Origin: Deltaproteobacteria bacterium
Lineage (GTDB): Bacteria > Myxococcota_A > UBA9160 > SMWR01
Direction of reading: 5' to 3'
Assembly (NCBI GenBank): GCA_032128375.1
Contig: JAQBGU010000063.1
Span: forward strand, 1 to 64,000
DNA length: 64,000 bases
The position numbers are program-made. The first letter of the stretch is position 1. Every line of letters begins with the position of its first letter. Below are positions 27,001-33,000 of this stretch, in pieces.

Positions 27001-30000
27001 GTCGAAGTGGTGGAAACGGCGGTCGGACACGGTTTCCGGGCGACACTCGAGAGCGGGAACCTGCTGACGGGAAACCTGTACGTCGGACTCGATTTCCACC
27101 CCGAGGAGGCGGCCGCCGGCATCGGCGAATTTGCGGGCCGTCCCACGCTTCCGACGATCCCAGGCGGGCTCGCGCAGATCGAGCAGAAGGTCGCCAAGTT
27201 GCTGGACAAGCTCAACGCAATCCCGCTCGAGCCGACCGTAGCCTCGGCTGACCGTACACTGCGGGAGGTCGAGCGCACGTTGTCCGCGCTGCGCACGTTG
27301 CTCGCAAGTGATGCTACGCAACAGCTTCCCGCGTCGATCGACGCAGCCATCGAACAGTTGCGGGTTGTGCTACAGGGCTTTTCGATGGAGTCCCCGCTGT
27401 ATGAGGACCTGAGCCGCGCAGTCAACGAACTGAACAGCACGCTTCAGGGCGTGAATGATTTGTCGCGCACCCTCGACCAGCGGCCGAGTAGCTTGATCTT
27501 CTCGCGCGATCGGCCGAACGATCCGCAACCGACAGCAGGCAAACCATGACGAAGACCCTGTTGCTGCTCCTCGTGACGATTGCGGCCGGTTGTGCGAGCC
27601 CGCCGCAGGAGACCACGCGCTACTTGCTGCGTTCGGAGAGTTCCACTCGAGCTGGGGTGATACCGGACGCAAACCTCGTCGGGATCGCCCAGGTGCGCGT
27701 CGCGACGTATCTCGATCAGCCGGGCATGATCGTCGAGACGGCCCCGCGCGAGGTGCATTCCGCACGCCTCAACATCTGGGCGGAGCCGCTCAGCGAAGGC
27801 GTACGCCACTACCTGCGCTCGGCCCTGTCCCGGGATCTCGGCTATCAAGTGAGCGATGAGAACGCGAGCCGCAACCAGTGGTCGTACGAGGTGCAGGTGG
27901 AAATCAACGAGTTCCACGGAACCCTCTCGGGCGAGGCGCGGCTCGTGGCCGCCTGGAGCATCGTGACCTCAGCGTCCTCCGAACCGGTCCGAGGGTTGCA
28001 CCACAGCGACAGCGAAACCCTTTCGGAGCCTGGCTACGCTGGCCTCGTCGACGCGCAGACCCGACTGCTCGATCGCCTCGCCGCCCGAATCGCCGGCGCG
28101 CTGAGAGAACTCCAGGCCCATCGCGAGCTATCCGGGATCGACGACTCCATCGATTGATCGACTCACCTCGGGTCAGCCGATCGCCTACGAGCCCGACCCC
28201 AGATGGGTCGGGCGACGACGTGGAAGCTTGCGCCGCGCAGCGGCGAACGCGCAACTAGCCGCGCAGCATTCGTCGCTGTTCGAACTGGAATGCGGCGCCA
28301 CGGCTGATCTTCGCGAGTTTCAGTTCCTGCGGCACGGATTGGGGATCGGCGGCACGATTGATGACGATATCCCATGCGAATCGCGCGCCACGCGGATCGC
28401 TCACCGGATGGCATCTCGCATAGGGGTTCACCGCTCCCGCGATTGCGTCGAGGGCGGGATGGACGGCCTGCGACAGCCCCGCGAACCAGCTGTGGGGAGT
28501 CGCGTTCTTCGAAGGCGGAGCAATCGCCAATTGCTATGCGTGCGGTCTGTGGTCCAGTCACCTCGACTCGAAAATTCACATAACCGCGCGGATGGAAGCA
28601 CGGATGCATCTGGAAAACCTTCGCGATCGCGTCGATATCGTCGCCGACGATTCCAAGAGGCGCGCGAAGGCGTTCCGCAGTCAGCGCTGCGACGCCCGTC
28701 CACTGGGCCGCACCGAGTTCGCTCGCGACGCCTGCCCCCGCTCGCTGATCCGCGCAAAGCATGAATGCGCGAGCGAGCAGATGGCTCTGCACCGCAGCCT
28801 CCTGCGCAACCACGACAAGAGCGCGGTGGGATAGGTCTTCGAGTTGGAATCCGGGATCAAACGCTCCTGAGTAGTCAGCCCAGCCGCCCGGCTCGCCATC
28901 TGCTTTCGGAACCTGGACCTGCGTCTGTGCAATCTTTGCGCCCGCTACGATCTCGAGATTCGGGTGCTGTTCGTAGGGCTCTGCTTCTGCATCGATGAAC
29001 ACCTTCCAACGACACGCTGGATAGCGACCGGCGGGGTCGCGTGGCGGACGGTGGATCGCACGCATCTTCATGCAGGGATGGGCGGCCGCGGCCGTCGCGT
29101 CGAAGGTCGGGTCCTCGATGTCGTGACACATCGCCTTGACCCGATCCTCACCGAACGGCTCCACATCCAGCAGGGCCCCGCAATGTGCGAGCCAGAATTC
29201 GCCATAGTCCGGTCGGTCGAGCCGAAACTGGAAATCCATGAACTGGTGCGGTGCACCAATGTCGAGCTGAAGATTCTTGAAGACCGTGCCGACCTCGCTT
29301 CCCTCGAAATTCAACGCGCGTTGCATCCGCTTCGAGTAGATCGGACTCGCCGCCATCCACTCCTCGATCGCAAACCGCACGTAGGCATCGCCACCACAGT
29401 GTTTCACAACGAGCGGCATGCCGACACGATCCTGGAGATGGCCGTTCAGCAGGTACTCGCGGCCGAGATGTGCGAGTGCCTGGCGCGAAAAATCGGCGAG
29501 TGTGGCGTCGGCATCGAAGGGTCCTGAATAGTCACGGCGCAGTGTCATGACCTCAAACCTCGGCTCGGAACCCGGACAGCCGGCTCAGCATCTCTTCCAT
29601 CTCGTTGTGGGAAAACGCAGACATTCTGTTACTCCTGGCTCTCGAGGTTCGCTTCCCCAACGGCGATGGAAAGAGCTCGGCTCGGGCAATGGCGGACGGC
29701 GTTCTCCACACTTGCGCGCAGAGACGCGGCCGGGTTTTCGGACCGAACAACGACTTTGTTCTGCTTCTTGTCGATTCCAAACACCTCGGGAGATTCGCTG
29801 ACACAAACCGCGTGCCCCTGGCACAGATCGAGATCAACTAGGATGCGGAATGCGCCGGCGGCTTGCTCGGCGCCTGCCGCCGACTCTGCGGCGACCGCGG
29901 TCGCAGTCGCCGCCGGGCTTCGACGCCGATAGCGCGCCCGACACGGCTGGGCGAGTTGCACGACCATTTTCGAGTGATCGTTGCGGTAGCTGTCTGCCGG

Positions 30001-33000
30001 CTGCGTGAGTTCGAACTCGAACGCTCTGAGCAGATCGCTGAAGATCGCCTTCAGCTGCATCATCGCGAATGCCGACCCGACGCAGCGATGGCGACCGGCG
30101 CCGAACGGAATCCACGCGAACGGCTGCCGATCCTCCTCGCGCCCATCCTCATAGCGGCTCGGATCGAAGCGGTCGGGCTCTGGGAAACACTCCGGCATCC
30201 GATTCGACACGGCGGGAGAAACCCCGACGAGCTTGCCCGCCGGCACCGTCCAACCCTTGTAGTGAAAGTCGTACATCACCTTCCGCATCAAAATGATCAG
30301 CGGCGGATGCAGCCGAAGCGCCTCCTGGATCGAGTGCTCGAGCTTCGGGATCTCGCGAAGCGCTTGATAGCTGACGTCTCGACCATCCGCGTAGATCTCG
30401 TCGAGTTCACCGACCACGCAGCTCATCACGTCGGGATTTTTCAACAGCTCGATCAGCGTCCAAGCGGCCGTTCCCGATGTGGTGTGATGTCCGGCGAACA
30501 TCATCGAAATGAACATCCCCGTGATCTGGTCGATCGTGTAGCGCGGCTCTCCGTTTTCGTCCTTGATGGTCAACAGAATGTCGAACAGCTCTCGACGAAT
30601 ACGGGGGTCCGCGCGCCGTTTCTCGAAAACACCGTCGAGCAGCTCTACCAGCTGGCGACGCGCCTTGTCCCGTGCCCAGAATGCCGGGATGGGTAAGTTG
30701 GGATTCACGTAGGCGATCGCGTCGGTGCCCTTCTCGAGTTCGTAAAAGGTCTGGAAATACTCCGCTGTCAGCTCCTCGCGGAACTCCTTGCCAATCAAGC
30801 AAGCGCTCGAGGTGTATATCGTCAGCTCGGCGAAGAAGTCGAGCAGATCGATCTCTCCCTGGTCATCGAGCGTCGCGATCATCCGCCGCACTTCCGACGC
30901 GATGGTCTCCGCGTGTGCCTGCATGAACTTCGCCGTCAACGACTGGTTGCGGAGCGCTTGTTTGCGTTGTTCCGGCGTGCCATCGAACACGACGCCCTCG
31001 CCGAAGACAGGCGTCATGAACGGGTATGCGGCCGCCTGGTCGAGTTGCTCGTCCGTGCCGCGGAAGAACGCCTCTTGTGCTTCCTCGCCCATCATCATGA
31101 CGACACGATTGCCGGCGAAGTTGATCTCGCCGATCTCGCCGAGTTCGTCGCGTACCCGTTGAAAGAGTTCGATTGGCTTTTTGCGGAGTTCGAGCAGATG
31201 GCCGAGCAGCGGCCATGCCCCCGACAGGACCGGCACGGGGCTGCCACCCCGATGTTCGCTTCTCACGGAATCGACTGCGACCGCCGTACTCATATCGTGC
31301 CGCCCGCGGATCGAGCGAAATGCCGGTTTGGGCTGATCATGATTCCTCCGTCTGTCGTCGCCGGCGAAGCTCGCGGGCAAGCGTTTCCTTCAGAAATCCC
31401 AGCTCCATTCGCCGCTGCGACGGAGTGGGTCCCTCCAGTTTTTTCATGGCTGCGAGACCCGACATGACCGAGATCGCGTAGTACTGGACGGCGATTGTTC
31501 TGCGCGGTGGCAAGCCCGCTTCGCCGAAAAAGCGAGCCCAGAGGTTTCCCCACACCTTGAGAGTCGCGTCCCGCAGCGGGTGATCTGGCGAAGACCAATC
31601 GACCGGCGGGATATTGAGCAGAATTTCGAACGTGCATCTGTATTGGTCACTTCCGAAATGCTTCCATGCCGCGTCGATGAAGAGAGCCACCCGCTCATCG
31701 AGTGACGTTTCGTCAACGGAAATGCCTGATAGTCCGGCCGCAAACTGGTTGAACGAGTCGACGAGAACCGCAGCCAGGATGCCGTCCTTGTCTCCAAAGT
31801 GGTGCTGGGCTGCCCCCCAGCTGACGCCGGACCGGCGGCTGATCTCCGCAGCTGTGGCTCGCTGAAAGCCGACCTGCATGATGGCCTCGACGACCGCTGC
31901 CTTGATCAGACGCTGCGTCTCGGCCGTGCGTTCGGCGTGACTCCGCCTTTCCCGGTGGGGCTTGGGGATTTCCAGTTGCTCGCTCATGGCCTGCATGATC
32001 TCCCTTGCCCGTCGAGTATGCACCCGTTGCGGGCTGAACATCCTGCTGCAGATTCCGCAGTAATACAATTTGCAATTCAATTGAATTATATATTGCCAAC
32101 ACCCGCTCCGCGATAGCCACGGGCGAGCTGCACGAACGTGCCGTTGTACACTGAGAATGGGAGCGAAGCGTGCACGACCCGAGACCGACACCCGAAGCGA
32201 TACGCCGCGTCGCGATCCTTGCGCCAATGAGAAGCGAGCTCAGGCCACTCGTGAAGCTATTCAGCCTCACCCGGTCACGGGGGCGGGAAGGTCTTCTCCG
32301 GGGAGCTGCCGGCGGCATCGAGGTGGTCGCAACGCTCACCGGCATGGGTATGCGATCGGGAGCGCAGGCTGCCGAGCGCATTCTACATGCGACGTCGCCC
32401 GACCATCTGATCGTCGTCGGCATCGCCGGAGGAATCGGCGGGAACGTCGCCATCAACGACTTGATCGTCCCGGAACTCGTGTTGAATCTGGAGACGGGCG
32501 AGAAGTTTCAGCCCACTCCTCTGGGTGTCGCGCGACAGCGCGGAACTCTTGCCTCGTCCGACGCGCTGCTCGAGGCGCCCGCTCAGGCCAGGAAGCTGAA
32601 TGATCAAGGGGTGATCGCGATCGATATGGAGACCGCCGCCATTGCTGCCGTCTGCGAACGACGTGGCTACCCGTGGTCGGTGTTTCGAGCGATCAGCGAT
32701 CGGGCCGATGACGGAAGCACGGATGCGGCGGTACTCGGCCTCGCCGACTCCGAAGGCAACCCGAACCTGGCAGCGGTGGCCCGCTTCGTGCTGACGCGAC
32801 CTCAGCGCATTCCACAACTGGTGCGCCTCGCGCGCGGCGCGAATGCGGCCACCCGGACGGCCGCCCTCGCCGCGTTCGATGCTCTGCATCGCGATTGACC
32901 GACTATGTCGGCTCCGAAGCCTGGGTCGCCCCTCGGCGCCGACCGTGCCCGAATCCGTCGTCTGCGCGGTGACATGGCGATGCCGATCATGCCTGGATGT

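Follow-up and report, generated by a model that had tools for sequence, protein, structure and literature searches.

Why does a bacterium keep a sterol 14-alpha-demethylase (CYP51) when its genome holds no recognisable means of making sterols? The question is raised by one gene in a window of 64,000 nucleotides, the whole stretch of DNA analysed here, from a marine sediment Myxococcota whose genome (hereafter G000) is assembled to 6.2 Mb in 249 contigs and is 91.17% complete. The gene and its neighbours are as follows.

29629..31293, minus strand: CYP51-ferredoxin fusion, 554 aa from start ATG 31293 (P450 domain at about 29947-31218, ferredoxin domain at about 29662-29847)
31337..31996, minus strand: TetR-family regulator (TetR_N in Pfam), 219 aa from ATG 31996
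28255..29548, minus strand: gene X, a conserved protein of about 430 aa with two repeated halves
32066..32095, no strand assigned: AT-rich inverted repeat with 15-nt arms, from a sequence repeat search

A ferredoxin-fused CYP51 and its gene set

The genome-wide survey's note had described a 554-aa CYP51 with a fused ferredoxin beside a TetR gene, and the open reading frame, Pfam and the solved relatives all confirm this. Residues 26-449 match p450 (E 9.6e-73) and residues 483-544 match Fer4_13/15/19 in Pfam; the longest open frame extends up to TTG 31380. The closest solved relative is M. tuberculosis CYP51 (1x8v, E 1.9e-173, residues 20-459); the alignment with the fusion of M. capsulatus (6mcw, E 2.9e-153) runs over residues 16-543 and takes in the ferredoxin as well, and CYP51s make up all of the top 56 solved relatives. 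In the translation, FGAGRHRCVG is the heme-ligand motif, AGHHTT belongs to the I-helix and CxxHxxC...CP is the ferredoxin motif. The stretches YPFMTPVFGEGVVFD and AGHHTT, which correspond to the B'-helix and I-helix signatures of the CYP51 family, align with M. tuberculosis CYP51. Judged from its sequence, the protein is a true CYP51 joined to a ferredoxin and falls into the M. tuberculosis-like, ferredoxin-linked clade. The ferredoxin part is matched by 73 of the best 80 related loci. Only p450 and Fer4 domains were found by Pfam on the fusion, with no flavin reductase domain, so the enzyme is not the self-sufficient P450 that had been supposed.

The gene set is co-directional, with the TetR gene first, the CYP51-ferredoxin fusion next and gene X last. 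The TetR gene lies directly upstream of CYP51 on the same strand and has its stop at 31337-31339; ATG 31996, which is preceded by GGGAG, is likely its true start. Its product shares 48% identity over 194 aa with the TetR protein of the CYP51 cluster in G041, a one-contig relative, and TetR genes adjoin CYP51 in many related loci (clusters 4, 6 and 22). The regulator may control the whole set. The inverted repeat, whose perfect 14-nt palindromic core (32074-32087) precedes the TetR start by about 70 nt, is a candidate operator or promoter of a TetR-CYP51-X operon. The window holds one match to it where 0.05 would be expected, and the 6.2-Mb genome has no other perfect copy; it was not found among the 96 related loci compared.

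Gene X lies directly downstream of CYP51, 80 nt away. In the window copy, the reading frame shifts by one base within a G4 run (28494-28497), and the match splits into 28496-29548 and 28264-28530. The base at 28494 is missing from the contigs of three public runs (X1, X3 and X4), so the gene is probably intact. A Pfam search gives no family for it; its halves weakly resemble small hydrophobic-ligand-binding domains, the fold matches being weak (Foldseek E 0.018; VIA Z at most 6.4).

Sterol synthesis genes in the genome and in the order

The reported lack of a triterpene cyclase in G000 holds, and squalene synthase and squalene epoxidase matches are likewise absent. The families PF13243 and PF13249, which between them cover the N- and C-terminal cyclase domains, gave 0 matches at E<=0.01, TIGR03463 none at E<=1e-100, squalene synthase (PF00494) none at E<=1e-5 and squalene epoxidase (PF08491) none at E<=1e-3.

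The order was sampled with 151 genomes, all of them MAGs, of which 90 are at least 90% complete. Genes were called CYP51-like at E<=1e-80, class A at 55% identity or more, and oxidosqualene cyclase (OSC)-like at E<=1e-100. A CYP51-like gene occurs in 107 of the 151 genomes and a class A close orthologue in 82; an OSC-like gene occurs in 10/151 and in 2 of the 82 class A genomes. The survey's note had stated that CYP51 is kept across the order without a cyclase, which stands on these figures, but the cyclases that it counted were mostly squalene-hopene cyclases. Such enzymes are irrelevant to sterols. Any PF13243 cyclase is found in 65/151 genomes, and all five of the 'strong' cyclases tested proved to be squalene-hopene cyclases. 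Among the genomes at least 90% complete, 69/90 carry a CYP51-like gene and 6/90 an OSC-like gene (the six being picked out by hand), and 64 of those 69 are without an OSC-like gene. Four genomes of one genus (g2) combine an OSC with a different, Methylococcus-like CYP51 and have no Bsr, the reductase treated below, so the search does detect an OSC where one is present. The OSC-linked CYP51s of the order (class C) have 6MCW as their best match. Since squalene synthase, squalene epoxidase and OSC are missing from the genome and from most of the order, the substrate would be taken from outside, and an exogenous sterol-like compound is the simplest reading for a lineage that mostly has no means of making sterols.

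A co-inherited reductase and a third gene

A second enzyme bears on this reading. A Cyp51/ferredoxin/8,14-Bsr module has been described by Lee, Giner and Welander (J Bacteriol 2026, PMC13277303) in Methylococcaceae, Mycobacteriales and uncultured Myxococcota. In that work, lanosterol was demethylated in E. coli by the M. capsulatus fusion, and the resulting compound was reduced by Bsr homologues of M. tuberculosis and of a Sandaracinus MAG, which shows that the NTF2-fold reductase Bsr works on sterols already demethylated at C-14. G000 has a Bsr homologue on a different contig from CYP51 (C154:9086-9634). It keeps all six pocket residues at aligned positions (Y37, Y43, Y78, Y80, D133 and D136), which are those mutated in that study, and the primer-encoded motifs of characterised Bsr in the supplement match it (PMC13277303). 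The available text and supplement make no mention of gene X. Its place as the third co-inherited gene of the CYP51/Bsr module is new here, as is the finding that the module usually occurs without a cyclase throughout a Myxococcota order.

Across the order, 60 genomes have Bsr no more than 1 kb from the class A CYP51, and in 20 the two are apart. A Bsr-like gene is found in 91 of the 93 genomes with a CYP51 of class A or B versus 2 of the 58 others, and gene X in 85/93 versus 7/58, counts that overstate the number of events because kin are not independent. The co-inheritance of CYP51 and Bsr strengthens the reading of an exogenous sterol-like substrate. Both one-contig genomes (G007 and G041) hold CYP51, Bsr and gene X and have no OSC-like match. 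In 28 of 92 genomes, no more than 5 kb separates gene X from CYP51 and/or Bsr. Actinomycetota loci also have gene X near CYP51, as does the complete genome of Aquihabitans sp. McL0605, in which PF13243 has no match.

Comparison with known systems

The best solved relative (E 1.9e-173) is M. tuberculosis CYP51B1 (Rv0764c), with the ferredoxin Rv0763c, in the cyp51/hpoR cluster. Both systems have the order P450 then ferredoxin, a TetR regulator nearby and a host without a sterol cyclase. They differ in that the ferredoxin is fused in the window protein, and the window operon has no CYP123-like second P450, SDR or aldehyde dehydrogenase. Furthermore, the window contains no copy of the HpoR operator GGACANNTGTCC (0 matches at up to one mismatch), the TetR gene is preceded by another palindrome, and the organism, a marine sediment Myxococcota, is of another phylum and habitat. 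The homologous mycobacterial cluster is described as an operon for H2O2 resistance that is controlled by HpoR, a TetR regulator responsive to c-di-GMP (PMC5909442), and neither the CYP51 nor the Bsr gene of mycobacteria is essential (PMC13277303). CYP51fx of M. capsulatus (6MCW; Lamb et al. 2020, PMC7947880) shares the architecture of a P450 with a C-terminal ferredoxin (residues 16-543), and natural fusions of this type are reported there from more than 50 bacteria, including Myxococcales. Unlike G000, M. capsulatus makes its own lanosterol, and the window protein is less similar to its enzyme (E 2.9e-153) than to M. tuberculosis CYP51.

Ferredoxin-fused CYP51s and the Cyp51/ferredoxin/Bsr module are thus known kinds. 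The G000 genes resemble the published module in the physical tie of CYP51 to a ferredoxin, here a fusion, in the same-genome Bsr with its six pocket residues, and in a lineage, uncultured Myxococcota, that is among the named carriers; they differ in that Bsr is unlinked (PMC13277303). Exogenously acquired sterols are proposed as the substrate in both cases. Action on exogenous lanosterol had already been suggested for Mycobacteriales in that paper, so the note's idea of a demethylase working on acquired sterols has a precedent. The paper groups myxobacteria with sterol producers, whereas 80 of the 82 genomes with a close orthologue have no OSC-like gene here; it also confines the ferredoxin link to the Bsr clade, whereas some ferredoxin-fused class C CYP51s of the order come without Bsr.

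Competing explanations

Two further genes of the window had been brought forward in connection with sterols.

14446-17130: HpnN-like RND (profile match)
17164-18201: KshA_C Rieske (profile match)

Both are present as described, but they do not count as evidence, since the RND family occurs in 121/151 genomes and the best 80 related loci show neither of the two as a recurring neighbour of CYP51. The RND passes the HpnN model (786.8 bits vs cut-off 751.85) and is not a BstA transporter (170 bits vs 1400), and the Rieske is not an SdmA C-4 demethylase (59 bits vs 600). The more specific proposal, that imported 14-methyl sterols are demethylated for 9,10-seco steroid degradation and serve as a carbon source, is considered unlikely. 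G000 does have an HsaA equivalog (C199:5829-7049), which scores 476.9 bits on NF045629 (cut-off 450) and has an extradiol dioxygenase behind it (C199:5829-8092), four genes with a KshA_C Rieske domain but no KshA equivalog, and acyl-CoA dehydrogenases and an enoyl-CoA hydratase within the window; a Mycobacterium is also cited as having made an 8(14)-unsaturated C19 steroid from lanosterol (PMC13277303). However, the dioxygenase reaches 224 bits on the HsaC model against a cut-off of 450, the best HsaD/BphD-type match, 68 bits to the BphD model, is not a strong one, and these catabolic genes are neither near CYP51 nor recurrent beside it in the best 80 loci. HsaA exceeds its cut-off in only 21/151 genomes, and its frequency is no higher with the module (14/93) than without it (7/58; cross-tabulated by hand), so feeding of steroid catabolism fails as a general rule. 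Of the earlier proposal, the exogenous sterol-like substrate is retained, and a catabolic role of the module across the order is not supported.

The gene set might instead serve redox or stress defence in the manner of the mycobacterial hpoR operon, with CYP51 acting on an endogenous non-sterol or surviving as a relic, and with a sterol activity that appears only in vitro. H2O2 resistance is aided by the Ms5855-5865 cluster, which includes three P450 genes and a TetR gene homologous to Rv0767c (PMC5909442), and M. tuberculosis CYP51 has been called an 'orphan' with an altered substrate cavity (PMC7947880). The window protein is nearer to this CYP51 than to that of M. capsulatus, and, as in mycobacteria, clusters of relatives hold SDR, aldehyde dehydrogenase, HIBADH-like and CMD genes. 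This is nevertheless judged quite improbable: this CYP51 and Bsr, for which a sterol delta-8,14 diene is the only known substrate, are inherited together in an almost one-to-one manner, the window lacks the HpoR operator, and retention of the CYP51-Bsr pair in 91/151 genomes argues against a relic. De novo synthesis, with a cyclase merely lost from an incomplete assembly, is very improbable. It draws on the fragmented, 91% complete genome and on cyclase fragments in G109, a 78% complete genome of the same genus; an HpnN-type RND without a hopene cyclase suggests that some lipid genes of G000 may be unassembled. Moreover, an OSC-like gene occurs in five module genomes, so the module is compatible with such synthesis, and Cyp51 in Myxococcota MAGs has been read in surveys as a sign of sterol producers (PMC12004948). 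On the other hand, all four families searched, covering squalene synthase, squalene epoxidase and both cyclase domains, are unmatched in G000, and an OSC-like gene is absent from 64 of 69 high-quality CYP51-like genomes and from both one-contig genomes. The cyclase fragments of G109 are not OSC-like, since a search of that genome for OSC gave nothing at E<=1e-100.

A proposed route and its implications

The reading favoured here, with moderate confidence, is that a cyclase-less host uses the CYP51-ferredoxin fusion and Bsr to remodel a sterol-like substrate from outside; this marine-sediment myxobacterium itself probably reworks sterols made by others. Lanosterol, cycloartenol-derived or other 14-methyl sterols would be taken up from eukaryotes or sterol-making bacteria in the sediment. 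Two points count against this reading: 14-methyl sterols are minor lipids in nature, which makes a benefit of the module hard to see, and Bsr is unlinked in G000. A separate NAD(P)H-ferredoxin reductase would reduce the fused 3Fe-4S-type ferredoxin, which would pass electrons to the P450. Three oxidations would then strip the 14-alpha-methyl group to give a delta-8,14 diene, Bsr would convert this to an 8(14)-ene, and the product of gene X may bind, deliver or further process the sterol. The purpose could be membrane use, signalling or detoxification and, in a minority of genomes including G000, preparation for degradation. In this picture the identities and domains of the genes, their co-inheritance and the lack of a cyclase are observed, whereas the substrate and its uptake, the role of X, control by TetR and the purpose are inferred.

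A bolder version, put forward only tentatively, is that the fusion, Bsr and gene X form a three-gene sterol-remodelling module, in which X represents a new kind of sterol-binding or -processing protein and 8(14)-sterols are produced for membranes or signalling. If true, most of a sediment Myxococcota order and many Actinomycetota would keep such a module while unable to make sterols, and Cyp51 in a MAG would no longer mark sterol synthesis.

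The CYP51-ferredoxin gene and its operon

What the window encodes belongs to a known module and is both genuine and well conserved. The module is composed of Cyp51, a ferredoxin and the NTF2-fold 8,14-sterol reductase (Bsr), and it most likely acts on imported 14-methyl sterols, which it would demethylate and in which it would rearrange a double bond. The enzyme type itself is not new; the new elements are the order-wide pattern of occurrence without a cyclase and a third gene, termed gene X. The features of the operon are as follows.

Features of the CYP51 operon
32066–32095: AT-rich inverted repeat, ~70 nt upstream of the TetR start
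31996–31337, minus strand: TetR regulator, likely ATG start at 31996, 219 aa
31293–29629, minus strand: CYP51-ferredoxin ORF, ATG start at 31293, 554 aa
29548–28255, minus strand: gene X, third gene of the operon, starting 80 nt downstream of CYP51

In the window protein, residues 26–449 match the Pfam P450 domain (E 9.6e-73), and residues 483–544 match a single-cluster ferredoxin. All 56 top solved relatives in a structure-sequence search were CYP51 enzymes, led by that of M. tuberculosis (E 1.9e-173, residues 20–459), and the alignment to the M. capsulatus fusion 6MCW spanned residues 16–543, ferredoxin included (E 2.9e-153). The fusion described in the genome-wide survey's note is thus borne out. 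The translation also contains a heme-ligand motif, a ferredoxin motif of the form CxxHxxC...CP and, in the I-helix, the histidine typical of CYP51. The same note's term "self-sufficient demethylase" fails, since the Pfam search detected a P450 and a ferredoxin but no reductase domain in the polypeptide, and a separate ferredoxin reductase is therefore needed. The nearest related loci belong to Myxococcota ("Deltaproteobacteria") MAGs (60–79% identity), followed by Acidimicrobiia and other Actinomycetota (54–67%), and the sequencing runs containing the window DNA are marine-sediment metagenomes. Ferredoxin-fused CYP51 is known from M. capsulatus and has been reported in more than 50 bacteria, including Myxococcales (PMC7947880).

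The TetR gene lies immediately upstream of CYP51 on the same strand, in agreement with the survey, and its product is 48% identical to the TetR in the CYP51 cluster of a one-contig relative (G041). The core of the inverted repeat (32074–32087) is a perfect 14-nt palindrome, the sole perfect copy in the 6.2-Mb genome. The repeat is a candidate operator of the TetR-CYP51-X operon. The palindrome was not found in other CYP51 loci, and elsewhere in the genome only three sites with two mismatches were detected, on other contigs and none on the contig carrying Bsr; its use as the mark of a regulon was accordingly dropped.

Sterol-synthesis genes in the genome and the order

In the source genome, which is 91.17% complete in 249 contigs, two domain-family searches matched neither squalene/oxidosqualene cyclase domain, and no matches were obtained to the oxidosqualene cyclase (OSC) model, the squalene/phytoene synthase family or squalene epoxidase. 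Order-wide counts were drawn from one set of 151 genomes, 90 of them high-quality, which was searched repeatedly. A CYP51-like gene (E ≤ 1e-80) was present in 107 of the 151 genomes and 69 of the 90, and was assigned to three classes by percent identity to the window protein and by co-occurrence.

Classes of CYP51 in the order
Class A: identity at least 55%, 82 genomes, 54 of which match through the ferredoxin part
Class B: identity 48–54%, 11 genomes
Class C: identity 39–47%, 14 genomes

A PF13243 cyclase occurred in 65 of the 151 genomes, with 54 strong matches of one type. All five strong cyclases tested were squalene-hopene cyclases, scoring 759–793 bits on TIGR01507 (cut-off 431) and only ~254–267 bits on the OSC model. 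Hopene cyclase was found in 19 of 44 genomes without CYP51 and 32 of 82 class A genomes; it is equally common without CYP51 and with class A, and is uninformative on sterols. OSC-like genes (706–739 bits on TIGR03463, plus two partial matches) were restricted to 10 of the 151 genomes (6 of 90 high-quality) and to only two of the 82 with class A CYP51. Four of these ten belong to one genus whose CYP51 is of class C, with the Methylococcus enzyme as its top solved match, and which has no Bsr; the search thus detects the cyclase where it is present, there with another type of CYP51. The survey's observation of CYP51 without a sterol cyclase, in this genome and across the order, is consequently confirmed and sharpened. 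Its cyclase counts had mixed hopene with oxidosqualene cyclases. Almost certainly, the lineage of this order cannot itself supply the sterol substrate. According to a 2025 survey, Myxococcota MAGs with Cyp51 point to sterol producers (PMC12004948), a view at odds with the counts for this order. In a full-text search, which covered neither figures nor subscription journals, no paper stating the cyclase-less condition of Myxococcota Cyp51 carriers was found.

A divergent protein of the squalene-hopene cyclase family (L102:549-2444, contig C1 of G041) fell below every curated cut-off, with 264 bits on TIGR01507 against 431 and 141 bits on the OSC model. Its host is a one-contig genome with a CYP51/Bsr/X cluster.

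Bsr and the published module

The module with Bsr, its occurrence in uncultured Myxococcota and the idea of exogenous sterols have already been published (Lee, Giner and Welander, 2026; PMC13277303). In that study, the NTF2-fold 8,14-Bsr converts the delta-8,14 diene produced by Cyp51 into an 8(14)-sterol, and homologues from M. tuberculosis and a Sandaracinus MAG perform the same reaction, so that mycobacteria may modify lanosterol acquired exogenously. Bsr is further described there as co-localising and co-evolving with one clade of Cyp51, whose members are either fused to their ferredoxin or encoded next to it and occur in Methylococcaceae, Mycobacteriales and uncultured Myxococcota.

In loci related to the window, a conserved SnoaL-like ORF of ~186 aa directly follows CYP51. 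A crude gene caller recovered CYP51 in 73 of 81 sources, and in 37 of these 73 the ORF is no more than five genes away. It carries all six Bsr pocket residues of PMC13277303, offset by one, as does the copy in the source genome, which is located on another contig than CYP51 (C154:9086-9634). Bsr-like genes were detected in 93 of the 151 genomes: in 91 of the 93 with class A or B CYP51, in two of the 58 without, and in none of the 14 with class C only. Like the corresponding figures for gene X, these counts overstate independent events because related genomes are not independent. The distance between Bsr and class A CYP51 is 1 kb or less in 60 genomes, and in 20, including the source genome, the two are apart.

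In six genomes (G070, G136, G142, G117, G128 and G143), class C CYP51s 41–44% identical to the window protein match through the ferredoxin part, and no Bsr-like gene was detected; the only one of these tested (L097, from G142) had the Methylococcus enzyme as its top solved match. PMC13277303 limits the ferredoxin link to the Bsr clade, a statement that these six genomes contradict. Separately, a Rieske ring-hydroxylating oxygenase alpha subunit adjoins Bsr in the source genome (C154:7435-8796, L095) and another is found beside the CYP51 cluster of G041 (L103:10236-11318); the two share only 35% identity over 212 aa.

Gene X

Gene X contains an apparent frameshift within a run of four G (28494–28497). 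Exactly one letter is missing there in contigs from three of four marine-sediment runs, the fourth having no cover at this point, and the frame is thereby restored. The break thus points to a likely slip in the assembly of the MAG, or else to a minor variant; gene X itself is probably intact. In all four runs, contig depth over 28100–28260 was 5–8 times that of the flanks and contigs broke at ~28255, so a repeated element seems to lie just beyond the stop of the gene.

The protein of ~430 aa is built from two halves that resemble each other and contains invariant Cys and His residues. It had no sequence match in Pfam, NCBIfam or the PDB, and its more than 6000 relatives in a large protein collection are, wherever named, called "hypothetical protein". 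Gene X occurs in 92 of the 151 order genomes, namely in 85 of the 93 with class A or B CYP51 compared with 7 of the 58 without. Its distance from CYP51 and/or Bsr is at most 5 kb in 28 of the 92, sometimes with only Bsr as neighbour. In Actinomycetota loci, too, gene X is found close to CYP51, as it is in Aquihabitans sp. McL0605, whose complete genome gave no PF13243 match. The AlphaFold model is confident (pLDDT 92.4), but its fold matches, to H-NOX, V4R and Bet3-type hydrophobic-ligand domains, are weak (best Foldseek E 0.018, best VIA-align Z 6.4). The Atlas offered no more than leads, to DUF6125 and ATC_hydrolase (0.86–0.87). An H-NOX/V4R/Bet3-like fold is a lead suggested by the model, and we infer that the protein may bind or process sterols. 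No paper describing gene X was found in a full-text search outside figures and subscription journals.

Neighbouring genes and alternative functions

Further genes of the window
5919–13541, plus strand: two tandem adenylate/guanylate cyclase proteins with AAA_16 ATPase domains (1172 and 1135 aa)
14446–17130, minus strand: HpnN-type RND protein, above the TIGR03480 cut-off
17164–18201, minus strand: KshA_C Rieske protein, adjoining the RND gene
24613–28157, plus strand: PqiA, PqiB (three MlaD domains) and a PqiC-like lipoprotein, convergent with gene X

Reading the RND and Rieske genes (14446–18201) as the Methylococcus sterol transporter BstA and C-4 sterol demethylase SdmA was rejected by NCBIfam scores; the Rieske protein is far from SdmA and distantly KshA-like (E 5.3e-27). 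The survey had cited both as support from nearby genes. The RND protein is indeed HpnN-type, but the two genes carry little weight: neither recurs beside CYP51 in 80 related loci, and the RND family, present in 121 of the 151 genomes in several copies each, tracks neither hopene cyclase nor CYP51 and was rejected as a sterol clue. Set against the 54 genomes with a strong hopene-cyclase-type match, its spread indicates that the cargo is probably not (only) hopanoids. The source genome has this RND gene beside the Rieske gene while lacking a match to hopene cyclase or squalene synthase. PqiABC was likewise rejected as a conserved sterol transporter, as it does not recur in the 80 loci; PqiA is listed among ten genes specific to sterol-producing methanotrophs (Table S1, PMC13277303). 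One of the tandem cyclase proteins has an N-terminal double zinc ribbon.

That the CYP51 step feeds steroid degradation is possible for the source genome itself, in which the machinery for ring opening is partly present: an HsaA equivalog scores 476.9 bits against a cut-off of 450 and is directly followed by an extradiol dioxygenase below the HsaC cut-off, and there are four KshA_C Rieske genes. As a general purpose, the survey's proposal does not stand. HsaA exceeds the cut-off in 21 of the 151 genomes; a cross-tabulation by hand puts 14 of them among the 93 module carriers and 7 among the 58 remaining genomes, so that HsaA is no more frequent where the module is present. A non-sterol role is the other alternative and stays alive, since the homologous mycobacterial cluster has been reported as an H2O2-resistance operon under the TetR regulator HpoR (PMC5909442); the HpoR operator motif of that operon, tried as a candidate, is absent from the window.

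After the HsaA equivalog and the dioxygenase come two further P450 genes on the opposite strand (C199:5829-11694, L106), and an IS1380 transposase lies a few kb upstream; the stretch may be one piece of a cluster for steroid ring opening.

Implications

The purpose of CYP51 in bacteria that do not make sterols has been a standing question ever since the description of the M. tuberculosis enzyme, an orphan in a non-producing host according to PMC7947880. According to the present counts, a whole order of uncultured marine Myxococcota keeps Cyp51, its ferredoxin and Bsr, almost always without OSC. Sterols that are 8(14)-unsaturated and 14-demethylated serve as source markers in sediments, and the order-wide cyclase-less module bears on this use. 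It also bears on surveys in which Cyp51 is used to recognise sterol producers among Myxococcota MAGs (PMC12004948). In addition, a large protein family without a Pfam entry is flagged as travelling with the module, and in Aquihabitans sp. McL0605 a cultured, fully sequenced carrier without a cyclase is available, which lets the question be tested.
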